64,000 bases of DNA from an uncultured Phycisphaeraceae bacterium (GTDB lineage Bacteria > Planctomycetota > Phycisphaerae > UBA1845). Positions 35,307-46,100 of this stretch are shown in pieces (within the stretch, counting starts at the first letter, position 1; every line of letters begins with the position of its first letter). The stretch covers positions 14,334-78,333 of the forward strand of contig CAZBUJ010000010.1 of assembly GCA_964495075.1 (NCBI GenBank), given 5' to 3'. A program made the position numbers and the translations under genes. Under the pieces are notes generated by a model. The model did no database searches, was not told the DNA's origin, and saw nothing but the letters and a program-made list of their open reading frames with translations.

Positions 35307-36368
35307 ATGCGATCGCATCCGGTTCGATTCTCGAAGATACGCACGCTCGTGGTGGTGTTCGCGGTGCTGGCCATTCTCGGCGGCGCAGGACTCATCGCCC
35401 TCGGCGTCAGGGAAACCCTGCGAAGCGGGCTGACCCCGTCGGGCGGCGTGCCGTTGATCGCGGCCGGCCTGGCGACCATCGCGGTCGCCTTCGCGGCCGT
35501 CGCCATGACCTGGCTCCTGGTGAAAATCGAGTCGCACACCAACCGCCAATACAACCAGCTCATCGACCTGTGCGATCTCATCAAGAACGAGGCGAACGTC
35601 CTCTCCTCCATCGCCCAGAGCAGCCGGATCTCGGAGGCCGTCAAGTCCATCACCGGACGCGAAGAAGAGCGGGAGGCCCTCCGCGCCGCCATCCGCGAAG
35701 ACATTTCCCGCGAGGACTGGGAAGCCGCCCTCTACCTCGTCGATCAGATGGAGCAGCGGTTCGGGTACCACGACGAGGCGGAACGACTGCGCCGTCAGGT
35801 CATTGACGAACGCACCAGCGACATGCGCAACCGGTTGAACGAAGCGCTGGGACGCATCGAAGAGCACTGGGCCGCCTACGAATGGGACCGCGCCGCCCAG
35901 GAAATCCAGCGACTGTTGCGGGCGCTGCCCGACGACAAGCACACCCGACGCCTCCCCGAAGAACACCAGAAACGGCGCGAGGCCCGCAAGCAGGAACTGC
36001 TGGCCGCCTGGCGAGACGCCGTCCGCCCCTCCTCCGCCCAGGAGGACGACATGGACCTCGACAAGGCCATCGCCGTGCTCACCGAACTCGACCCCTATTT
36101 AACGCGGGAAGAAGCCCGCGCCCTGGAAGAGTCGGCCCGCGGCGTGTTCCGGGCCAAGCTGGCCCGGTTCGGCATGCAGTTCGAGCTGGCGGTCAAAGAC
36201 CAGCGATGGCGCCAGGCCCTCGAAATCGGGGTCCAGATCATCGAGGAGTACCCCAATTCCACCATGGCCCAGCAGGTGCGCGAGATGGAAGGGGTGCTCC
36301 GGCAGCGCGCCGGACTGACCGGCGACGTCGAGGTCACCGTCCACCCCGCCCCGGCGTCCGATAACTAG
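35307..36368 (+). CDS. Membrane-anchored (2 TM) helical/TPR-like protein, hypothetical
   Basis: 353 aa. Two N-terminal TM helices followed by about 260 aa of charged helical sequence. Confidence 0.55.
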   Translation: MRSHPVRFSKIRTLVVVFAVLAILGGAGLIALGVRETLRSGLTPSGGVPLIAAGLATIAVAFAAVAMTWLLVKIESHTNRQYNQLIDLCDLIKNEANVLSSIAQSSRISEAVKSITGREEEREALRAAIREDISREDWEAALYLVDQMEQRFGYHDEAERLRRQVIDERTSDMRNRLNEALGRIEEHWAAYEWDRAAQEIQRLLRALPDDKHTRRLPEEHQKRREARKQELLAAWRDAVRPSSAQEDDMDLDKAIAVLTELDPYLTREEARALEESARGVFRAKLARFGMQFELAVKDQRWRQALEIGVQIIEEYPNSTMAQQVREMEGVLRQRAGLTGDVEVTVHPAPASDN

Positions 36369-36605: not shown

Positions 36606-37988
36606 GTGATGGCGGCTGCAATCCAAGGGGGCCGACCACGCCGAACGCTCGGCCAGTGGATCCGGGCGTCGGTTCTCGGTCTACAATGCAAATCCACCGT
36701 GCTCGTCGTCGCCCTGACGCTCTGCGTGGCGACCGTCGTGGGCGGACTGTTCGTTCACTTCGCCGGACGCCTCACCGCGAAGAACCAGGAACGACACGCC
36801 ACCCAGCTTTGCGCCGGATTGGCCCAACTGGCCGCCGATGCCCTCGCCCAGCGGGACTGGCCGCACCTGCAGCGAGTCGCCAACAAATTCGCCAGCGGTG
36901 ACCCGCTCATCTTCGTCTCCTTCTGCGATGCGCAGGGCCGGTCGTGGGCATCCGCGTCCCGGAACGACCTGCCGATCGACCCGGCCTGGCTCCAGCTCGG
37001 GGAGGACGCCCGCCGAACGGTGGGCCAGCCTCTGCTCCGCTACGAGCATCCGGGCGTCCCGACCTTCCTCGACGTCAGCTACCCCATCAACCGAGCACTG
37101 GCGGCCACCGACGGTGGGCCCAGCCCACTGCTCGGGTACGTGCGAGTCGGCTTCAATGTCGATCCCACGCTGAAGGAGTTCGCGGGGGTGATGGATCTCG
37201 TTTCCGGCATCGCCCTGGTGGTCGTCCTCATCACGATCCCGTTCGCGTTCCTCGTCGTCCGGCAGATCGTGGTGCCGCTCAACGAGCTGTCGCTCACGGC
37301 CGAGAAGCTTGCCCAGGGCGACCGGTCCGCCCGCTCCCGCGTGAGCCGGACCGACGAGATCGGACAACTCGCCCGGTCGTTCAACCACATGGCGGACGAG
37401 ATCGATCGCAACGAAAAGAAGATCACGGCCATGAACGCGGACCTTGAGGAACGGGTCCGCGATCGCACCCGGCAGTTGAAGGAGATGGCAGCCCGCGATC
37501 CGCTCACCGGCCTCTACAACCGGCGCCACGTGGACGAGGTCCTCGCCCGCAGCTTCGCCGAAGCCAAGCGCTACGGGCACCCCCTTTCCTGCCTGATGAT
37601 CGATCTCGACAACTTCAAGGCGGTCAACGACCGGTTCGGCCACCATGCCGGGGACCAGGCGTTGATGCTGGCCGCGGACACCGTTTCGGGCGAGTTGCGG
37701 GCGTCGGACATCGCGGCACGCTTCGGCGGCGACGAATTCGTCGTCCTGCTGCCCCACGCCGAGCAGGAACAGGCGGCCGTGCTGGCCCGGCGGATCGCCG
37801 ACCGGTTCGCGAGCAACATCCGGGCCGCGCTGCCGACGCTCCGTACGCGATTGAGCATCGGAATCGCCAGTCTGGGCGACGGCGACGCGGATCGTCCGGA
37901 GGGCCTGGTACGAGCCGCCGACCGCGCCCTCTACGCCGCCAAGCAGCGCGGGCGCAATCGCATCGAAATCTCGCGAGTCCCCGTATAA
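36606..37988 (+). CDS. Diguanylate cyclase (TM sensor, HAMP, GGDEF) with an RxxD I-site
   Basis: HAMP (LNELSLTAEKLAQGD...IGQLARSFNHMADEI) and an active site RFGGDEFVVLL preceded by RASD five residues upstream. Confidence 0.85.
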   Translation: MMAAAIQGGRPRRTLGQWIRASVLGLQCKSTVLVVALTLCVATVVGGLFVHFAGRLTAKNQERHATQLCAGLAQLAADALAQRDWPHLQRVANKFASGDPLIFVSFCDAQGRSWASASRNDLPIDPAWLQLGEDARRTVGQPLLRYEHPGVPTFLDVSYPINRALAATDGGPSPLLGYVRVGFNVDPTLKEFAGVMDLVSGIALVVVLITIPFAFLVVRQIVVPLNELSLTAEKLAQGDRSARSRVSRTDEIGQLARSFNHMADEIDRNEKKITAMNADLEERVRDRTRQLKEMAARDPLTGLYNRRHVDEVLARSFAEAKRYGHPLSCLMIDLDNFKAVNDRFGHHAGDQALMLAADTVSGELRASDIAARFGGDEFVVLLPHAEQEQAAVLARRIADRFASNIRAALPTLRTRLSIGIASLGDGDADRPEGLVRAADRALYAAKQRGRNRIEISRVPV

Positions 37989-38151: not shown

Positions 38152-38562
38152 ATGTGGACGGAAGTCGGAAAATTCGTCGGCGGCAAGGTCCTGACGGCCG
38201 TACTGGTCGTCGGCGTGTTTGCCAGTGGATTTTGGTTCTACAGGCATCCGGAGCAGCTCCAGGCCATCTGGGGCGTGCTGAAATCGGTGCTCGCCTGGCT
38301 GGGATTCGTGATTGTCCTGCCCTGGGCCCTCTTTTTCGTGGTGGCCTGGGTCCGGCGGTTCGACAGCAACGCCGCCGCCGCCGCCATGCTGATTGCGTAT
38401 CTGCTGCTGGACGTGCTGGCCGCCCTGTACCTCGCCGGCTGGCACGTGAGCGGGGCCCTGACTTGGACCGTGCTGGTCCTTGGCTTCCTTGCAGCAGGAG
38501 TTTATAATTTCCTGGCCTGTGAGACGATCGACAACCGGCTCGAATCGTCCGAGGGCCTGTAA
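38152..38562 (+). CDS. Four-TM small membrane protein, hypothetical; first gene of the ESCRT-III/Vps4-like cluster
   Basis: 136 aa with four clear hydrophobic helices. It ends 22 nt upstream of the kinase ORF. Confidence 0.5.
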   Translation: MWTEVGKFVGGKVLTAVLVVGVFASGFWFYRHPEQLQAIWGVLKSVLAWLGFVIVLPWALFFVVAWVRRFDSNAAAAAMLIAYLLLDVLAALYLAGWHVSGALTWTVLVLGFLAAGVYNFLACETIDNRLESSEGL

Positions 38563-38625
38563 CGCCCGCGGTGGGAACGACGGGTGGACAGGGCCGAGCC
38601 GGCACAGAATAGGGAGGACCTGGCG

Positions 38626-39645
38626 ATGGTCAGCCTGAAAGCAGGCGACCGAATCAGCAACTACCTGCTCGAGGAGCTGGTGGGGACGGGCAGCTTCGCC
38701 CAGGTGTGGAGAGCCCGCCATCATACCCTTGACAAGGTCGTCGCGATCAAAGTCCTGACCGACCAGCAGTACGTTCGGAACTTCCGGCAGGAAGGGGTGG
38801 TCGTCCACGGACTGCGGCACCCCAACATCGTGCGGGTCGAGGACATTGACGCGTACGATGATCCGCCGTATCTGATCATGGAACTTGTGGACGGGCCCTC
38901 CTTGCGGAGGGTGATCGATGCCCACCCGGACGGATTGCCCATCCCCGCGTGCCAGACGGTGTTTGGCGGGTTGTGCAAGGCCCTTTCGTTTGCCCACGAG
39001 AACGGTTTGATCCATCGGGACATCAAGCCGGCCAACATTCTGCTCAACCATCGCGAAGACGATCTGACCACGCTGACGGAGCAGGCGGTCAAGGTGGGCG
39101 ATTTCGGCCTGGGCCGCACCGGCGGCGTGACCACCGCATCCATCATGCAGTCGGGCAGCCTTCAGACGGAAGAGGGCCGAAGCATCGCCGGCACCCTCGC
39201 GTACATGTCGCCCGAGCAGAAGGAGGGCGGGGCCGTGGACGCGCGGAGTGACCTCTATGCGTGCGGCATTGTCCTGTTCGAGATGCTGACGGGCAGTCGA
39301 CCGGCCGGAGTGGAGATCCCCAGTTCCGTGCGTTCGGACGTCCCTCCGGTCCTGGACGAGGCCTTTCGTCGCTGCTACACGCGGCTGGATCGCCGTGTCG
39401 CCTCCGCCGGTGACCTGCTCGACATCGTGCGGCGTACCGGTCCGTCGGGGCCGGCGGCGGCCGGCGGGGGGCTGACGTGCCCGTCGTGCCACGGGCGCGT
39501 CGCCGGTGGAGACCAGTTCTGCACCCACTGCGGATACCAGTTGGTCGAGTCGGTGCCGCGCTGTCCGTCGTGCCACGCGTTTGTCAATCGCACTGACCGG
39601 TACTGCATTTTCTGTGGGACGCAGTTGCAGAGAACCGGCGAGTAG
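38626..39645 (+). CDS. Ser/Thr protein kinase with a C-terminal double zinc ribbon
   Basis: GTGSFAQVW, VAIKVL, HRDIKPANILL, DFGLG and TLAYMSPEQ. C-terminus CPSCHGRVAGGDQFCTHCG...CPSCHAFVNRTDRYCIFCG. The ATG at 38626 is preceded by GGGAGGA. The maximal ORF starts with GTG at 38584. Confidence 0.85.
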   Translation: MVSLKAGDRISNYLLEELVGTGSFAQVWRARHHTLDKVVAIKVLTDQQYVRNFRQEGVVVHGLRHPNIVRVEDIDAYDDPPYLIMELVDGPSLRRVIDAHPDGLPIPACQTVFGGLCKALSFAHENGLIHRDIKPANILLNHREDDLTTLTEQAVKVGDFGLGRTGGVTTASIMQSGSLQTEEGRSIAGTLAYMSPEQKEGGAVDARSDLYACGIVLFEMLTGSRPAGVEIPSSVRSDVPPVLDEAFRRCYTRLDRRVASAGDLLDIVRRTGPSGPAAAGGGLTCPSCHGRVAGGDQFCTHCGYQLVESVPRCPSCHAFVNRTDRYCIFCGTQLQRTGE

Positions 39646-39662: not shown

Positions 39663-39920
39663 ATGGCGTCGTGGATCTTCATCATCTTCGCGATCGTCCT
39701 CGTGGCCGGGCTCGTGCTCACCGCGGTGCTCATGATCATGTTCATCGTTCATAGCGCCAAGCGGTCGTTGTCGGGACAATCGCCGCGCCAGCCGGCCGGC
39801 CCCGCCCGACGCGTTGGTGACCGACGGGCGAATGTTGACCGGATTTGTCCGAATGATCATTGTAGGCATCCGAACCGGTCGGATGCCCTCTATTGCGGCC
39901 AGTGCGGACGGCGGTTGTAA
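39663..39920 (+). CDS. Small single-TM protein with a C-terminal zinc ribbon
   Basis: 85 aa. TM helix WIFIIFAIVLVAGLVLTAVLMIMFIV, then CPNDHCRHPNRSDALYCGQCG. Confidence 0.5.
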   Translation: MASWIFIIFAIVLVAGLVLTAVLMIMFIVHSAKRSLSGQSPRQPAGPARRVGDRRANVDRICPNDHCRHPNRSDALYCGQCGRRL

Positions 39921-39923
39921 ACG

Positions 39924-41396
39924 TTGACCGATTCATCGAGCGGACAATCCGGCCGGCTGAACGCGGACGCGGCGGAGACCCTTCGGGTCGAGACGGAGTT
40001 TCTGTCCGGCGTGGAGGCCAACCTCGAGGCCGCCAAGGGCGGGCTGTTGCCCGGCGATCGCTGGCGTGCCGTGCGGGACGACGAGAGCGACGCCTTGCGG
40101 GCGATGATGGCCTCCCGGCGGATGTACGACCGCGAGTTGCTCAAGCAGCTCCCGCACAACCGGCGGATCGTGGTCCAGGGCTCGCAGCGTCGCTGGCTCC
40201 TGTTCCGCCGTCCGACCGAGGTGGCCATTGCCACCGTGGTGGCACCGTTTGAGCACTTGCTGACGCCCGAGTCGACCACCGCACCCCCGGTCACGCTCGG
40301 CGAGTTGACCGCCCACGTGCGCGGGCTGGTGGGCGAGGCCAAGGTGCCGCACGTTGTCGGCGTCTGTTCGCCCAGCGGATTCGCCGACGACGTGCGGGAG
40401 ACGCGCCTGGACATGCCGAACGTCACCATCGTGCTGGTCGAGCCGCGGGCGGGCGGCGGGTGGACCATCGCGACGCCCGGCGGAACCCAGGTCTCGGAGA
40501 ACATCCGAAAGCTGTACGACCCCGAGGCGATTAGCCAGAAGGTGACCCGGGCGCTGCGGGAGATCGAACACCGCCGGGTCGACCTGTTGACGGGCGGGCT
40601 GTCGGCCGCGTCGATCGCCGCGGGCACCGGGCTGCCCGAAGGAGTGGTCATGTTGGCCTTCAAGAAGGTGGCGGGCGAAGACACCGAGCTGCGCGTGACC
40701 CGCCGCTCGGGACATGTGGTGCTCTACCGCGGAGCGCCATCACGGTCGCAGGAGAGTAGTGCCATGAACGTCGTCGATCGCATCCGCGCACTGTTTTCAT
40801 CGGAAGGCGACGAAGCCCAGAAGATCAACGTGCTGGCCGAGCGACGGGCCAACCTCGCCCAACGCCGCGATCGGCTCTACGAGGACATCGGCAAGCTGGA
40901 AAAACGCGAGGCCGAGCTGCTCAATGAAGGACGGACGTCCAAATCGCAGGTCACCCGCCGGCGGCTGGCCGCCCAGCTGGGGCAGCTTCGCAAGGACATC
41001 GCGCGGCAGAACACGACCGCCAACATGCTGAATCAGCAGATCAACATCCTCAGCACCGACATCCACAACCTCACGCTGATCCAGCAAGGCCAGATGGCCA
41101 GCCTGCCCAATACCGAGGAACTGACCGAGAACGCGGTCAAAGCCGAGGAAATGCTCGAAACCCTCCGGGCCGACGCGGACATGGTCGCCGGCCTGGAAAC
41201 AGGACTGGCCGACGTGGCGACCAGCGACGAAGAACTGGCCATTCTCAAGGAGTTCGACGAGCCGGAGGCACCGAGGCAAACGGCCAGCGCCGACAGCGCG
41301 GCGGAACGCGAGGTGATGCGCGAGTTCGACCAACCGCAAGAAGAGGCGAGGCCAGAGAAGAACGCAGGGAAGCAACGGGCCGACCCGGAGGCGTGA
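39924..41396 (+). CDS. Fusion protein: unknown N-terminal domain (about 270 aa, possibly ending in a winged helix) plus a C-terminal ESCRT-III/Snf7-like helical domain
   Basis: The region from about aa 275 (MNVVDRIRALFSSEGDEAQKINVLAERRANLAQRRDRLYEDIGKLEKREAELLNEG...LRKDIARQNTTANMLNQQINILSTDIHNLTLIQQG...TENAVKAEEMLETLRADADMVAGLE) follows the Snf7 helix pattern, with a basic hairpin and then an acidic tail. The tail carries the repeated motifs LAILKEFDEPE and REVMREFDQPQ. Confidence 0.6.
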   Translation: MTDSSSGQSGRLNADAAETLRVETEFLSGVEANLEAAKGGLLPGDRWRAVRDDESDALRAMMASRRMYDRELLKQLPHNRRIVVQGSQRRWLLFRRPTEVAIATVVAPFEHLLTPESTTAPPVTLGELTAHVRGLVGEAKVPHVVGVCSPSGFADDVRETRLDMPNVTIVLVEPRAGGGWTIATPGGTQVSENIRKLYDPEAISQKVTRALREIEHRRVDLLTGGLSAASIAAGTGLPEGVVMLAFKKVAGEDTELRVTRRSGHVVLYRGAPSRSQESSAMNVVDRIRALFSSEGDEAQKINVLAERRANLAQRRDRLYEDIGKLEKREAELLNEGRTSKSQVTRRRLAAQLGQLRKDIARQNTTANMLNQQINILSTDIHNLTLIQQGQMASLPNTEELTENAVKAEEMLETLRADADMVAGLETGLADVATSDEELAILKEFDEPEAPRQTASADSAAEREVMREFDQPQEEARPEKNAGKQRADPEA

Positions 41397-41441: not shown

Positions 41442-42050
41442 ATGGACTTCTTCGACTGGCTGACCAAGCGAAAGAAACCGCTGTCCGAAATGTCGCGAGC
41501 CGAACTCCGGCGGCAGGAGCTGCTGCTGGAGAAAGACCGCACGCAACTGCTCAACAAGGTCACCAAGCTGGCCAAGGCCAAGCAGGAGCTGTTCGAACGC
41601 GGGGCCGGTGAGAAGACCCCCGAAGTCCGGCGCATCCTGGCCCAGGAGTTCGAACTGAAGACCACCGAGCAGCTCATGCTCTCCCGGCAACTCAATATCC
41701 GCAGCAAGGAGATGATGACCGTCTCCCGGCTGCGGATGCTCCGCGAGAACGCCGAGCGGGCGGCCAGTACCGGCGGCAAGCTCGGCCTGATCAACGAAAA
41801 GGACATGCTGCGCCTCGGACGCCTCATCGAGAACGACTCGATCAAGGCCGAAGCGTACCAGGAGCGTCTCGACGAGATCCTCTCGATGGGGGCGGAAGTG
41901 GACGAAGGGGCCGCCGGGCTGTCCGAGGCCGGTCAGTCCGTGCTCGACATCTGGGACAAGATGGACGCCGGCGCCATCGCGGACTCGCGGGAAGCGTTTG
42001 AGGAAGCGGATCGACGCGTCCGGGAGCAGGCCAGTCCGGCCGAGGAGTAG
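41442..42050 (+). CDS. ESCRT-III/Snf7 (PspA-superfamily)-like protein
   Basis: 202 aa. N-terminus MDFFDWLTKRKKP, a basic helical hairpin in the first half, and an acidic C-terminal half. The length and charge asymmetry are typical of ESCRT-III subunits. Confidence 0.65.
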   Translation: MDFFDWLTKRKKPLSEMSRAELRRQELLLEKDRTQLLNKVTKLAKAKQELFERGAGEKTPEVRRILAQEFELKTTEQLMLSRQLNIRSKEMMTVSRLRMLRENAERAASTGGKLGLINEKDMLRLGRLIENDSIKAEAYQERLDEILSMGAEVDEGAAGLSEAGQSVLDIWDKMDAGAIADSREAFEEADRRVREQASPAEE

Positions 42051-42056
42051 CCCATC

Positions 42057-42257
42057 ATGGCGGGATCGCAACCACTGCGTCGATCCGTCAACAACCGTGT
42101 CATCGCCGGGGTGGTGGGAGGCGTCGCCGAGCACTTCGGCCTGGACGCCACCCTGTTGAGGGTGGTCTACGTGCTGGCGAGTGTGCTGTCGGCGGCGTTC
42201 CCGGGTATGCTGGTCTACCTCATCTGCTGGTTGATCATCCCCGAGCGCGAGTATTAG
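42057..42257 (+). CDS. PspC-domain membrane protein
   Basis: 66 aa. LRRSVNNRVIAGVVGGVAEHFGLDATLLRVVYVLASVLSAAFPGMLVYLICWLIIPE is a canonical PspC domain. Confidence 0.8.
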   Translation: MAGSQPLRRSVNNRVIAGVVGGVAEHFGLDATLLRVVYVLASVLSAAFPGMLVYLICWLIIPEREY

Positions 42258-42322
42258 GCAACCAGACCGTCGTGCAGAAACCGGGGAGCCCCGGTCGTCC
42301 GCGCGAAACGCGAGCGGAACTC

Positions 42323-42922
42323 ATGGCACTATTCAAGTCAGCGGAAGAGCGGCGGATTGAACGCGACATCAAGATCCGGCAGGGCATCCGCCGGATCGAG
42401 AAGGCCATTCGCGAGCAGAACAAGTTCGCGGACGAGTTCATCAAGAACGCCCAGCGGGCCAGGAAAATGGGCGACAACGCCCAGTACAAGTTCATCCGCA
42501 ACTCGCTCAAGAAAACAGCCGCCGTCAAGCGGGCCCTCGAGCGGCAGTTGCTCTCGGTCAAAAACGCCCTGCTCATCAAGCGGCAGGCCGAGGCGTCCGC
42601 CGACTTCGCCCAGTGCATGGGCACGATGGCCACCGAGATCGGCAAGCTGTTTGGCGAGACCGACCTGCTCAAGACCCAGGCCGATTGGGAGAAGGCCATG
42701 GTCCAGTCGCAGTCGATGGAGGAACGGATGTCGATGTTCCTCGACACCATCGAGGACATCGCCGCCGAAGACACCGAGGCCGCTGAACTGGTCACCGACG
42801 AAGAGATCGACCGCATGATCGAGGCCGAACAGGAAGCCGAGCACCAGAAAGAGCTGGGAAAACTCGCGAACCTGCGAGCGGAGCTGGACTCCTTGAAAGG
42901 CGAAGGCGAGAAGCAGAAGTGA
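42323..42922 (+). CDS. ESCRT-III (Vps2/CHMP1-2-like) protein with a C-terminal amphipathic MIM-like helix
   Basis: 199 aa from the ATG at 42323 (MALFKSAEERRIERDIKIRQGIRRIEKAIREQNKF...). The order basic N-half, acidic C-half (DTIEDIAAEDTEAAELVTDEEIDRMIEAEQEAE), then terminal KLANLRAELDSLKG parallels CHMP-type subunits. The maximal ORF starts with GTG at 42272. Confidence 0.7.
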   Translation: MALFKSAEERRIERDIKIRQGIRRIEKAIREQNKFADEFIKNAQRARKMGDNAQYKFIRNSLKKTAAVKRALERQLLSVKNALLIKRQAEASADFAQCMGTMATEIGKLFGETDLLKTQADWEKAMVQSQSMEERMSMFLDTIEDIAAEDTEAAELVTDEEIDRMIEAEQEAEHQKELGKLANLRAELDSLKGEGEKQK

Positions 42923-42927
42923 GCGGT

Positions 42928-43128
42928 AATGACAAATTACAAATTACTAATTACTAATGAACATGGCGGCAGAGCGGGTATCGGCAAATGGATATACGAA
43001 TAATTGGATGCAAGGGCCGGGAAGCGAGATGTGCCGGTGTGCGCCCTCCTAATGGGCCATACACAACAATTGACAATAGCTCCGTTGCGTCGCCTCATTC
43101 GTAATTAGTAATTGGTAATTAGTAATTC
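42928..43128. repeat. AT-rich imperfect inverted repeat (about 33-bp arms, each about four tandem heptamers of AATTACN / GTAATTN) flanking a core of about 135 bp
   Basis: The left arm at 42928-42960 reads aatgacAAATTACAAATTACTAATTACTAATGA. The right arm at 43096-43128 reads TCATTCGTAATTAGTAATTGGTAATTAGTAATTc. About 29 of 33 positions are complementary by my hand alignment. The repeat ends 11 nt before the Vps4-like ATG. Confidence 0.7.
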
Positions 43129-43139
43129 ACCTGCGTCCC

Positions 43140-44258
43140 ATGACCGTGTCCTTTTCAACCTTCGAGCGTCTCAAGACCAAGGGCGTCTGCGCCTACAAGA
43201 AGGGCGAGTACAACTCGGCCAAATCGTACCTCATCGAGGCCGCCGAATGCATGGTCGAGCTGGCGGAGAAGGCGCCATCGGCCGAAGTGCGCCGTCAGCG
43301 CGAGGAGATTGCGGCCGAGCTGATCGACCTGGCTCGCGATTGCGAACGATACAAGACCTCGCCACCCCGGCGGCGGCAGGCCGCACGGGAACGCGACGAC
43401 GACAGCGGCCGCGACGCCTCCGACTGGATCCTGAAGGAGAAGCCCGACTTCGGCTTCGACCATATCGCCGGCCTCGATGACGTCAAAGAGGAAATCCGGC
43501 TCAAGATGATCTACCCGTTCAACCACCCGGAACTCGCCCGGAAGTACGGGATCGGGGTCGGCGGCGGCGTGCTCCTCTACGGGCCGCCCGGCACGGGCAA
43601 AACCATGATGGCCAAGGCCGTCGCCCACGAGGTCGAGGCGACCTTCTTCGTCATCAGCCCCGCCCAGGTGCTGAGCAAATGGGTCGGCGAGGCGGAGCAG
43701 AACATCCAGAAACTCTTCGACGCCGCCACGAGTGAGGCGAAATCAGTCATCTTCATCGACGAGATCGAGGCCCTCGTCCCGCGGCGTAAGTCGGACGGGT
43801 CGAGCGTCATGCAACGCGTGGTCCCCCAGATCCTCCAGGAGCTGGAAGGATTCGACCGGAAGGGGGACCGGGCCCTATTATTTGTCGGAGCCACCAACAA
43901 GCCGTGGATGCTGGACGAGGCCATGCTGCGGCCCGGTCGGTTCGACACGCGAATCTACCTGGGCTTGCCCGACCCGCCGGCGTTGTACCGGCTATTGGAG
44001 ATCTACTTCGGCGACCGCCCGCTGTCCGACGACGTCGACTTCAGCCGCCTGTGCGACGGGCTCGACGGCTACAGCGGCGCCGACATCAAGAACATCGCGC
44101 AACAGGCGGCGGCCATCCCGTTTATGGAATCGGTGGCCGGAGCGGAGCCGCGCCCGATCGCGATGAAGGACATCGAAAAGGTGATCGAAAGTACCCCGCC
44201 TTCGGTCAAGCAATCGGACCTCGTGCGGTTCGAGAAGTTCGACAGCACGGGTCGATGA
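43140..44258 (+). CDS. MIT-domain AAA+ ATPase, Vps4-like (meiotic-clade AAA)
   Basis: 372 aa. An N-terminal three-helix, MIT-like region (KGVCAYKKGEYNSAKSYLIEAAECMVELAEKAPSAEVRRQREEIAAELIDLARDCERYK). Walker A GPPGTGKT, Walker B IFIDEIE, second region of homology ATNKPWMLDEAMLRPGRFD. The C-terminus STPPSVKQSDLVRFEKFDSTG resembles the Vps4/katanin/spastin tail. Confidence 0.85.
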   Translation: MTVSFSTFERLKTKGVCAYKKGEYNSAKSYLIEAAECMVELAEKAPSAEVRRQREEIAAELIDLARDCERYKTSPPRRRQAARERDDDSGRDASDWILKEKPDFGFDHIAGLDDVKEEIRLKMIYPFNHPELARKYGIGVGGGVLLYGPPGTGKTMMAKAVAHEVEATFFVISPAQVLSKWVGEAEQNIQKLFDAATSEAKSVIFIDEIEALVPRRKSDGSSVMQRVVPQILQELEGFDRKGDRALLFVGATNKPWMLDEAMLRPGRFDTRIYLGLPDPPALYRLLEIYFGDRPLSDDVDFSRLCDGLDGYSGADIKNIAQQAAAIPFMESVAGAEPRPIAMKDIEKVIESTPPSVKQSDLVRFEKFDSTGR

Positions 44259-44342
44259 CCCGGGGCGACACCGCAGACGAAAGGAAGCGCTTCGGCGGCG
44301 ACCAAGGTGACCGAACGGGCGACGGCGGCCGGAGGTAAGACG

Positions 44343-46100
44343 ATGACAGCCAGGTTCGATGCCAAGCGCCTGTTCAACGACGTGGACGCCGTGGCGGCCG
44401 TGGTGCCGGCATCGGAGGTCTTCTCGCTACTGACGCGTGCGCTTGATCTTCCGCCCGCGTGGGCGGCCCTCGTCGGCGACGTCCAAGGGGGGCAGCGGTT
44501 CTTCGCGCCCGGTGAGGTCGTACCGCGCGAAAACGCCGATGAGCTGCTCCTCGTACGCGTCACGCCGATCGACCTCCGCGTCCAGGAATCCGGCCTCGTC
44601 TCCCGCGACAAGTACCAGTTCGATGCGGAAGTCCGCGTCCGGGTCGCGCTCATCGCCGATCGCGGGGAACTCAGCTCGTTTCAGAACACCGCGCTGGGCA
44701 GCAAGCGGACGGCCACCAGCGACACGTTGGCCCAACTCCTCCGTCCCGACATCCGGTCCGCCCTCATCGACGTGGTCGGCGAGTCGAACGCGGAGACACT
44801 GATCACCGATGCCGACCGCCACACCTGGTCCGACCGGCTGAACGCGGCACTCAAGCCGGTCTGTTTCCGCGCCGGCCTGGCCGTCGACGCGGCCCCGTCG
44901 GTGCGCTTCGATTCGCCGACGTTCCGGCAGGTGCGCGTGTCGCAGGAACAGACGGCCCGCCATCAGGCCGAGCACCAGGCACGCCGACAACTGGAGCAGG
45001 CCATCGAAGCGGCACAGGTCGAACACCTCGACCACCTCGAGAGCCTGCTGGCCCGGTTGAAGGACGCCGCCGACTCCTCACCGGACGTGGAACTGCCGGA
45101 GCTCATGCGTACCTTCTCGCAACGAGAGCGCGGCGAGATGTACGAGGCGCTGTTCGCGGCGGATTCGGTGCAGGCCACACGGTGGATCGTGGTGGCCACC
45201 AGCGACGGGCTTTACTGGTTCGACCCGGCATCGCCGGGCGAACCGGCCCGCGCCGTCGACGTCGTGCCGGAGGTCGGCGGGATTCGAAGCGTGCACTGTC
45301 TGCGTTCGTCCGCGAGTGATCAGCGACTGTTGCTCGGCGCCGCCCGTGGCGTGTACGAGTTCGTGCCCGAGGGCACGGATCCGGCTGCGATCTATGTCGC
45401 CGATCGGCAGCGCGAGGTCCGCGGCGGGTTCAACGCGGTCGCGCTGGCCGGCCGCCAACTCTGGGCGTCGCACTCGGAACTCGGCCTGGTCCGCTGGGAT
45501 CGCACGGCGCCGGACCGACCGGAGCCCGTTCTCGAATCGCAAACCCAAGCCGCCCGCGCGGTGCGCGGCGTGCTGTTCCACGAAGGGAAGATCTGGGTCT
45601 CGCTCGACGACCGGGTCGCGTCGCTGCCCGCCGATGCTCCCGGGTCCGAGCCCGATTGGTATACCGGCAGCGAGGCGACGATCACGGCCCTGGCCGTCAC
45701 GCCGGGCGGCGTGCTGGGCGGCACCGCGGACGGCCGGATCCTGCACTGGCGGTTCGACGAACCCCGGGCCCCGCAGACGCTGCACACCGGAAACCGGCGT
45801 TCGGTCGAGTCGATCCACGTGCTCAGCACCGGCGGCGTCGATCGCCTCTTCTTCACCGACACGTCGCTGGCCGTCCACGCCCGGGTGCGGGGCGATTCGT
45901 TTACGTGCCGTTACGAGGCGGGCGGCCAGACGTTGCGGCGGGTGGAGGTCATGCCGGACCTGATCGTGGCCACCAATGACGTGCGCGATCGCCTGGTCTG
46001 CTGGTCGCCGTCCAGACCCGACCAGCCCCGCGCGGTCATCCCCGTCGCCCGGCTGACCCACCATTCCGTACAGGATGTCTGCCTCGTGCCGACGGCGTGA
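44343..46100 (+). CDS. SPFH/Band-7-like N-domain, coiled coil, and C-terminal beta-propeller-like domain protein
   Basis: The N-domain pattern (LLLVRVTPIDLRVQ...FDAEVRVRVALI...LAQLLRPDIRSALIDVVGESNAETLIT...AGLAVDAAPSVRFDSPTF) resembles SPFH. It is followed by a Gln/Glu/Arg-rich coiled coil and about 300 aa of repetitive beta-rich sequence. An alternative GTG start lies at 44307. Confidence 0.55.
   Translation: MTARFDAKRLFNDVDAVAAVVPASEVFSLLTRALDLPPAWAALVGDVQGGQRFFAPGEVVPRENADELLLVRVTPIDLRVQESGLVSRDKYQFDAEVRVRVALIADRGELSSFQNTALGSKRTATSDTLAQLLRPDIRSALIDVVGESNAETLITDADRHTWSDRLNAALKPVCFRAGLAVDAAPSVRFDSPTFRQVRVSQEQTARHQAEHQARRQLEQAIEAAQVEHLDHLESLLARLKDAADSSPDVELPELMRTFSQRERGEMYEALFAADSVQATRWIVVATSDGLYWFDPASPGEPARAVDVVPEVGGIRSVHCLRSSASDQRLLLGAARGVYEFVPEGTDPAAIYVADRQREVRGGFNAVALAGRQLWASHSELGLVRWDRTAPDRPEPVLESQTQAARAVRGVLFHEGKIWVSLDDRVASLPADAPGSEPDWYTGSEATITALAVTPGGVLGGTADGRILHWRFDEPRAPQTLHTGNRRSVESIHVLSTGGVDRLFFTDTSLAVHARVRGDSFTCRYEAGGQTLRRVEVMPDLIVATNDVRDRLVCWSPSRPDQPRAVIPVARLTHHSVQDVCLVPTA

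Follow-up and report, generated by a model that had tools for sequence, protein, structure and literature searches.

Several known systems couple ESCRT-III proteins to winged-helix (wH) modules. CdvB of Sulfolobales combines an ESCRT-III core and a winged helix in one polypeptide, and it acts with its ESCRT-III paralogues CdvB1/B2 and with the Vps4 homologue CdvC, an AAA ATPase which has one AAA domain and a C-terminal helix of the Vps4 type; genes for such partners lie nearby. In the ESCRT-II (Vps25 wH)/Vps20/Snf7 pathway of eukaryotes and Asgard archaea, a wH module is coupled to the ESCRT-III subunit which starts the polymer. Furthermore, genes for wH proteins are repeatedly found upstream of those for ESCRT-III and PspA (PMC10936438). 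According to a review, a Vps4-like ATPase appears to be absent from bacterial ESCRT-III systems (PMC7619361). Ravi et al. (2024) reported that VPS4-like ATPases were transferred to bacteria, Planctomycetes being among the hosts (PMC11237479, supplement); in their operons (e.g. Opitutus ACB74714.1) snf7 is displaced by a protein with TPR and six transmembrane segments (PMC11237479). Here we analyse a gene for a 490-aa protein, and the cluster around it, in a 64,000-nucleotide stretch of DNA (the window) from an uncultured Phycisphaeraceae bacterium (assembly GCA_964495075.1, contig CAZBUJ010000010.1, positions 14,334 to 78,333).

The gene is a probable variant of a bacterial ESCRT-III/AAA-type module, with an unusual adaptor fusion and, probably, two products. 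Like CdvB, its protein joins an ESCRT-III-like core and a winged helix, and, like the Cdv system, the cluster encodes several ESCRT-III-like paralogues as well as an AAA ATPase which has one such domain and ends in a Vps4-type helix. The best structural matches of the C-terminal domain include CdvB2 and CdvB, and CdvC is the best NCBIfam match of the ATPase. Unlike in CdvB, however, the winged helix is N-terminal and preceded by an α/β domain, and the host is bacterial. Further differences from Cdv are the lack of a CdvA (PRC-barrel) partner and of a Pfam Snf7 match, the probable second product from an internal start, and the PspC, SPFH, kinase and GGDEF genes of the cluster. Asgard ESCRT-IIIB and Snf7 are also among the top structural matches of the C-terminal domain, but in contrast to ESCRT-II/Vps20 the coupling is a covalent fusion instead of a complex, with no ESCRT-I/II or ubiquitin components. 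With PspA/Vipp1 (IM30) the locus shares PspC-domain and SPFH genes and a Vipp1 filament as top Foldseek match; it differs in having no PspA_IM30 match and no PspF-type regulator, and in its three divergent paralogues, adaptor fusion and Vps4/CdvC-like ATPase. The operons of Ravi et al. likewise encode a bacterial VPS4-like AAA ATPase, whereas here the ATPase is clustered with three ESCRT-III-like genes which standard Pfam models do not detect.

The locus would add a class of bacteria whose three divergent ESCRT-III-like genes, missed by standard domain models, are in synteny with a Vps4/CdvC-like ATPase, a pairing described as absent from bacteria in recent reviews (PMC7619361). The wH adaptor fusion echoes the coupling of wH and ESCRT-III in ESCRT-II/Vps20 and CdvA/CdvB. 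Full-text literature searches found no description of this cluster.

The gene and its predicted ESCRT-III-like domain

The open reading frame (ORF) spans 39924-41396, exactly where a reading of the sequence without database searches (the sequence-only reading) had placed it. It starts with TTG and encodes a long product of 490 aa (54 kDa) which, from the ORF list, homologues and AlphaFold2 (AF2), comprises an adaptor domain and an ESCRT-III-like domain. All positions given are those of the window, and all features lie on the + strand. A search of 5.8 billion proteins returned 431 homologues (E<=1e-3), the best 120 of which are 53-99% identical, about 475-500 aa long, devoid of Pfam domains and all labelled hypothetical. 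Wherever organism names are attached to the homologues, they are those of Phycisphaerae or Planctomycetota. In a scan of one genome per species, 96 species had the gene; 80 loci were returned, almost all of them with the label Phycisphaerae/Planctomycetota. Because a distant full-length clade (24-35% identity) corresponds to Tepidisphaeraceae, the family covers at least two orders of the class Phycisphaerae. The sequence conservation of the 490-aa ORF marks it as a real gene. A start at this TTG is plausible, as only 3 nt separate it from the stop codon of the upstream gene. However, the exact start of the long product is uncertain: the majority of orthologues begin about 10-25 residues downstream of it, and AF2 predicts no structure for residues 1-14.

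The full-length AF2 model, built on an alignment of 40 orthologues, has a mean predicted local distance difference test score (pLDDT) of 82.3. Its C-terminal helices span residues 283-292, 296-338, 342-392, 399-428 and 433-445, followed by a weak helix at 459-467, and their order is that of α0, α1, α2/3, α4 and α5 in ESCRT-III proteins. The helical hairpin formed by α1 (296-338) and α2/α3 (342-392; together 40809-41099), on which AF2, Foldseek and hhalign agree, reaches a pLDDT of about 90, and α4 (residues 399-428) lies at 41118-41207. The layout read from the letters alone, a basic hairpin followed by shorter helices and an acidic tail, is thereby recovered in the predicted helices between residues 283 and 467. 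Helix α0 (residues 283-292, MNVVDRIRALFS; 40770-40799) resembles the N-termini of Snf7, CHMP and Vipp1 proteins in its position and its M-x-x-hydrophobic pattern, and by analogy with characterised ESCRT-III members, whose α0 is amphipathic and binds membranes, it is a putative membrane anchor. A second AF2 model was restricted to residues 281-490 and based on an alignment of 34 distant or stand-alone relatives. It has a pLDDT of 80.6 (92-98 in the hairpin) and helices at positions 3-12, 17-58, 62-111, 117-145 and 155-165 in domain numbering.

When this domain-only model was compared by Foldseek with 350,542 PDB chains, ranks 1-19 were all occupied by the ESCRT-III superfamily: Vipp1, Asgard ESCRT-IIIB, CdvB2, Snf7, CHMP1B, Loki CHMP4-7 and CHMP2A/CHMP3. 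The superfamily accounts for about 33 of the top 50 matches, an enrichment which cannot be due to chance. The probability was 0.99 for Asgard ESCRT-IIIB, and the identity to CdvB2 was 22-23%.

Profile comparisons point in the same direction. In hhalign, the C-domain family aligned with Snf7 at E=0.014, with 127 columns in register (residues 14-148 against 16-147), with CHMP4B at E=0.011 and with a five-sequence ESCRT-III alignment at E=0.0011, while reversed references used as controls gave E-values of 0.15-0.4. Of the reference sequences, that of Snf7 was verified, 239 of 240 residues being identical to PDB 8wb6. Alignments with PspA and Vipp1 were not better than the reversed controls. At the level of sequence profiles, the signal to ESCRT-III is weak but consistent.

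The Pfam Snf7 profile (PF03357) gave no match to the 490-aa protein at E<=0.1 and the gathering-threshold test failed; one of 35 relatives was matched (E=0.0045). PspA_IM30 (PF04012) matched neither the protein nor its relatives. Because the Snf7 profile test failed, we place the domain in the ESCRT-III superfamily and not in the Pfam Snf7 family. The label ‘Snf7-like’ given by the sequence-only reading therefore holds for fold and Foldseek matches at superfamily level but not for the Pfam family. Searches of PDB sequences with single sequences and three profiles produced only sub-significant matches to CdvB, CHMP4B and MARF1, and a second large protein search with the C-domain alignment recovered close relatives and fragments only, with no Snf7-annotated bridge. 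Taken at the level of the models, residues 281-490 are predicted to be a complete ESCRT-III-superfamily core.

A duplicated motif had been noticed in the tail and proposed as a docking element resembling a MIT-interacting motif (MIM). Both copies are present, ELAILKEFDEPE at residues 437-448 and EREVMREFDQPQ at 461-472, but only the first is conserved. The first copy forms, together with helix α5 (433-445), a family-wide conserved element at residues 433-448 (SDEELAILKEFDEPE; 41220-41267). In the pattern S/T-x-EELAILKEF-D/E, residues E437, I440, L441, E443 and F444 are invariant in 40 orthologues, the Glu is invariant in 35 stand-alone or distant relatives, and the core is retained in stand-alone relatives of only 33-45% identity. 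The second copy (41304-41339) occurs in 8 of 120 orthologues, a small subclade made up of the closest relatives, and lies in a region with pLDDT below 50. The MIM1 consensus is a C-terminal amphipathic helix of the form (D/E)xxLxxRLxxL(K/R), and neither tail motif fits it. The first motif (EELAILKEFE) coincides with predicted helix α5, and structures of ESCRT-III polymers show helix 5 of one subunit bound to the hairpin of its neighbour (PMC7619361). Since the motif sits at such a polymer-contact helix, it is less likely to be a MIM; by analogy, an inter-subunit contact of α5 would explain its conservation better than docking to MIT. The remainder of the tail is acidic and rich in Pro and Glu. 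Its extreme C-terminus, RADPEA (41376-41393), which the sequence-only reading did not mention, is a candidate docking peptide on account of its conservation, perhaps one of the proline-containing C-terminal peptides (MIM2-type or other) that bind MIT domains: a C-terminal R-x-A-D-P-E-A ([AS][DE]PE[ATSG] / [DEGN][PA]E[APS]) ends 104 of 120 orthologues, E489 is invariant, and Tepidisphaerales carry an EPEAG counterpart.

The linker, its putative internal start and the N-terminal domain

The two modules of the protein are joined by a flexible linker of about 12 residues with pLDDT 55-66 (residues 270-280; 40731-40763), whose codons contain a putative internal ribosome-binding site. In the full-length model the low-confidence stretch ahead of α0 covers residues 271-282. 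The Met of MNVVDRIR (codon 40764-40766), already named by the sequence-only reading as a possible internal start, is invariant in the orthologue alignment. Across 79 unique orthologous loci its codon is ATG in 73, GTG in 4, TTG in 1 and a non-start codon in 1. The Shine-Dalgarno (SD)-like sequence GGAGA lies 8 nt before this ATG (40751-40755), and the bases G/G/A/G/A at positions -13 to -9 are found in 70/78/72/73/66 of these loci. An SD-like 4-mer is present at -20 to -5 in 95% of loci. Elsewhere in frame within these ORFs the figure is 19%, and for the genuine starts of neighbouring genes it is 8-70%.

Synonymous codon choice follows the same trend. Arg at codon -3 is encoded by AGA/AGG in 19 of 26 cases (background 7.6%, p=2e-16), Glu by GAG in 69 of 71 (background 60%), and G is the last base of the preceding codon in 68 of 79 cases (background 38%). 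In Tepidisphaerales, where Q-E of the linker is replaced by G-G, a GGAGG is nevertheless retained in the DNA, 7 nt before the ATG. As judged from these alignments, the pattern is that expected from selection on an internal ribosome-binding site. In addition, stand-alone relatives of 190-230 aa begin exactly at the internal Met. Two proteins are likely because a conserved GGAGA stands 8 nt before a conserved start codon within the linker: the gene probably yields the 490-aa fusion and a 210-aa protein consisting of the ESCRT-III-like domain only (putative product, residues 281-490; 40764-41396). The proposal of an internal start has thus gained strong sequence-level support.

Genes with conserved internal starts giving long and short isoforms include those for ClpB, IF2 and CheA. 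The likeness is that an in-frame SD sequence and start codon inside an ORF would give a full-length and an N-terminally truncated protein. Unlike in these cases, the short isoform would here be a complete polymerising domain and the long isoform its adaptor-bearing version. To our knowledge, no internal-start isoform pair has been described for any ESCRT-III protein. If true, the internal start would allow one gene to fix, in a compact way, how many nucleator subunits are made per polymer subunit.

A true stand-alone homologue of the C-domain (locus L087, 7959-8627; 209-222 aa, 51% identity) has the same SQEELDILKEFDEPE helix. It belongs to a lower-GC organism and adjoins groES/groEL, with neither adaptor nor cluster genes nearby. 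Two candidates for a natural split between N- and C-domain genes were rejected: in L084 the split is an assembly frameshift at an ambiguous base, and in L083 the gene is cut by the contig end.

Within the N-terminal domain, residues 15-270 are confidently folded (pLDDT >90 in AF2). The α/β core (residues 15-200; 39966-40523) contains the conserved segment VIGVCSPSGFT and shows the order α-β-(α-α)-β-β-α-β-α-β-β, which in the model fits a restriction-endonuclease-like fold, whose core runs α-β-β-β-α-β, better than an alternating PIN/NYN arrangement. Sub-threshold Mrr_cat matches occur in 5 of 46 divergent homologues (E 0.02-0.1) in a single register, residues ~121-170 being aligned with profile positions 59-104 of 115, so that the VIGVCSPSGFT segment falls in the C-terminal half of the profile. 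A match to the NYN domain of MARF1 (E=0.01) covers the same β-α-β unit, and for this reason the fold call is tentative. Foldseek found no PDB match of the core better than E=0.23. The catalytic D...(D/E)xK residues are not conserved, strands 81-89 and 95-105 having no conserved acidic-x-Lys; among divergent homologues the near-invariant residues are D69, P77, S149, G152, L171, G178, W180, E201 and R209. The core is possibly a catalytically dead, restriction-endonuclease-like domain of Mrr_cat type. The sequence-only reading had recognised no family here; firm matches are indeed missing, although the sub-threshold Mrr_cat-type matches recur.

The N-terminal domain ends, as had been proposed, in a winged helix (residues 203-269; 40530-40730), predicted with the order H-H-H-β-β and pLDDT >90. 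It is the only wH in the domain, whereas the ESCRT-II type is marked by tandem wH repeats. The top Foldseek PDB matches of the full model are winged helix-turn-helix (wHTH) proteins, with probabilities up to 0.98 and E>=0.035, and noise-level matches to HTH-family Pfam models appear at residues 207-240 in one homologue. The ESCRT-II chain 3cuq_B comes only at rank 26 (E=0.13), no better than ArsR/MarR-type regulators, and the wH therefore cannot be assigned to the ESCRT-II type.

Paralogues, ATPase and proposed mechanism

Two further ESCRT-III-like proteins are encoded downstream, neither of them matched by Pfam or NCBIfam. The 202-aa paralogue (E202; 41442-42050) aligned with the C-domain family in hhalign with Prob 67% and E=5e-5 over 143 columns in register. 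It is syntenic in 76 of 82 loci at 62-82% identity and lies next to the target gene in Tepidisphaerales too. The 216-aa paralogue (E216; 42272-42922) aligned with CHMP3 at E=4e-4 (residues 18-108 against 1-103) and with the ESCRT-III alignment with Prob 77% and E=2e-5. Its ORF is listed from a GTG. The start is probably Met-18 (MALFKS...; 42323), because both the conservation among 63 orthologues and the alignment with residue 1 of CHMP3 begin there, and this start would probably give E216 a canonical ESCRT-III N-terminus. E216 ends in a conserved amphipathic helix, ELGKLANLRAELDSLK (ELdkLagLRAELdsLK), which is MIM1-like without matching the consensus exactly. By its sequence it appears a better MIM1-like candidate than the tail of the 490-aa protein.

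The Vps4/CdvC-like AAA+ ATPase (43140-44258) consists of an N-terminal three-helix region, one classical AAA domain (PF00004, E=1.9e-41) and a C-terminal Vps4_C helix (PF09336, E=4.9e-7, 30.1 bits against a cut-off of 21.3). Its best NCBIfam match is CdvC (E=3.4e-73, 246.7 bits, residues 13-367), and its identity to yeast Vps4 and to human VPS4A is 33-34%. The N-terminus of about 75 residues reads as three helices, and Pfam finds no MIT match in the protein; this region may be a MIT that has diverged, or else some other domain for substrate recognition. Residues 1-77 (43140-43370) are strongly conserved in 42 orthologues (F.TFERLK.KGV.AYK.GDY..AK.YL..AAEC..ELAE...).

We consider it moderately likely that Phycisphaerae have a conserved bacterial ESCRT-III/AAA-ATPase system for membrane remodelling and that the 490-aa protein is its targeting or nucleating subunit. 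In this role, which we infer for the long form, the protein would be placed at a membrane site via its N-terminal adaptor and would then seed the co-polymerisation of the short form with the 202-aa and 216-aa paralogues. The invariant α5 (EELAILKEFE) would contact the hairpin of the neighbouring subunit. The ATPase might be recruited by C-terminal tails, namely the MIM1-like helix of E216 and possibly the ADPEA end of the target, and would remodel or disassemble the polymer. Membrane anchoring and regulation could come from the PspC-domain and SPFH proteins, the small membrane proteins and the Ser/Thr kinase, and the physiological output would be envelope or membrane remodelling, in repair or in cytokinesis.

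Several results weigh against this interpretation. Single Foldseek E-values of the C-domain are weak (0.058-0.5), and long helical proteins are hard to tell apart by this method. No ESCRT-III or PspA model of Pfam or NCBIfam matches the 490-aa protein, which gives coiled-coil noise only, and a profile search of PDB sequences with the C-domain yields only CdvB, in register but at E=0.43. As for the ATPase, its CdvC score of 246.7 bits is below the NCBIfam equivalog cut-off of 650, the score of its ATPase domain with Cdc48 D2 equals or exceeds that with Vps4, and its N-terminus aligns with the VPS4 MIT no better than reversed controls do (hhalign). Lastly, the ATPase, PspC and 216-aa genes are not adjacent to the target gene in Tepidisphaerales, and many Phycisphaerales have toxin-antitoxin-like genes inserted between the 216-aa gene and the ATPase. 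The link to the ATPase is therefore one of context, frequent but not obligatory in position.

It is unlikely, though worth serious consideration, that the system is instead an envelope-stress effector of the Psp type. The three ESCRT-III-like proteins would then act like PspA/Vipp1, being recruited by PspC to damaged membrane which they coat and seal, and the AAA ATPase and the kinase would be regulators only, with no Vps4-style scission cycle. A PspC-domain gene between the paralogues would suit this role, but PspC is not next to the gene in Tepidisphaerales. An SPFH/Band-7 protein is encoded in the cluster, links between PspA and SPFH proteins are known (PMC10936438, PMC11237479), and membrane repair is what the ESCRT-III relatives so far known from bacteria serve (PMC7619361). 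Vipp1 is the single best Foldseek match of the C-domain, yet the probabilities are 0.82-0.99 for archaeal and eukaryotic ESCRT-III against 0.3-0.84 for most Vipp1 chains. The profile results argue against a Psp-type effector, as the hhalign signal leads to Snf7, CHMP4 and CHMP3 and not to PspA/Vipp1, and PspA_IM30 is not matched. Three paralogues accompanied by a single-domain AAA ATPase with Vps4_C are, moreover, the composition of Cdv/ESCRT systems.

A cytokinesis machine resembling Cdv and independent of FtsZ seems quite improbable. Here the long form would mark the division site, the short form and the paralogues would build the constricting ring, the ATPase would disassemble the polymer stepwise and the kinase would exert cell-cycle control. 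Planctomycetes lack FtsZ, and it is unknown which protein drives the binary fission of Phycisphaerae (PMC6952346); for this reason the cluster is a testable candidate for the division driver. Its synteny throughout the class, with identities which track divergence, is as expected of a housekeeping function, and the architecture parallels CdvB (ESCRT-III and wH) with CdvB paralogues and CdvC. On the other hand, the presence of PspC and SPFH favours a stress or maintenance function, Tepidisphaerales do not have the ATPase next to the gene, and no CdvA-like protein was found. If it is not division machinery, the cluster would be a new kind of bacterial membrane-repair module.

A nucleic-acid-binding coiled-coil protein, whose N-domain binds DNA and whose C-terminal helices oligomerise, for instance in nucleoid organisation or restriction/defence, might be read from the weak Mrr_cat and HTH-type Pfam signals of the N-domain, the wHTH transcription factors at the top of the full-model Foldseek matches and the coiled-coil Pfam noise of the C-domain, but it is very improbable because the PD-(D/E)xK catalytic residues are not conserved, the C-domain matches ESCRT-III specifically and not generic coiled coils, the gene neighbourhood, in contrast to a defence island, is a stable and syntenic one centred on the membrane, and no PADLOC defence model matches the target or its paralogues.

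Gene neighbourhood

Synteny of the cluster extends over 80 species-level genomes and 60 metagenome loci, and its gene order is found again in 80 genome loci and in about 55 of metagenomes; a metagenome scan with the narrower stand-alone alignment mostly re-found the Phycisphaerae cluster. Immediately upstream of the target gene, an 85-aa protein with one transmembrane helix and a zinc ribbon is encoded (39663-39920; Zn_Ribbon_1, E=4.9e-4), and its gene has the same position in other loci. It is preceded by the gene of a Ser/Thr kinase with a C-terminal double zinc ribbon (38584-39645; Pkinase E=1.4e-39, DZR E=9.6e-7), syntenic in 79 of 82 loci, and by that of a 136-aa multi-pass membrane protein (38152-38562), which lies upstream in 75 of 82 loci and also in Tepidisphaerales. 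Tepidisphaerales keep a core together which consists of the membrane protein, the kinase, the Zn-ribbon protein, the target and the 202-aa paralogue. Two of their loci (L085 8903-9832 and L086 8915-9847) have an extra conserved gene of about 310 aa, without Pfam match, between the Zn-ribbon gene and the target, and a 48-aa ORF lies just upstream of the target homologue, after the Zn-ribbon gene.

Downstream, the 66-aa PspC-domain membrane protein (42057-42257; PF04024, E=1.7e-22) is encoded between the two paralogues. The junction of the 216-aa gene and the ATPase (gap 42923-43139 in the window) is a variable insertion hot spot with gaps from 12 nt to 4.3 kb. Insertions there (e.g. in L010, L017, L024, L031 and L049) are toxin-antitoxin-looking pairs, nucleotidyltransferase with HEPN-like or DUF433/PIN-like, and in six loci a large multi-pass membrane protein takes their place. 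PADLOC matched only generic kinase and AAA domains, and a defence-system reading of the cluster was rejected on that basis. In L002/L046 (CP070718.1, Phycisphaerales bin470) and L028 (CP070827.1), whose genomes are complete or nearly so, the usual downstream site lacks the 216-aa paralogue, the ATPase and the SPFH gene; either these genes are located elsewhere or the module works without them.

After the ATPase follows the gene of a 597-aa protein with an N-terminal SPFH/Band-7 domain (44307-46100; PF01145, E=4.6e-7, above cut-off), which occupies this position in 40 loci. The domain covers the first ~240 residues. The remaining ~350, always found after the ATPase, are without family match, and their repeat-like sequence suggests a β-propeller. 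At the far upstream side lie the genes of a 353-aa membrane/helical protein (35307-36368) and of a HAMP-GGDEF protein, a diguanylate cyclase (36606-37988). Their synteny with the cluster, seen in about 50-58 of 82 loci, hints at a cyclic di-GMP input.

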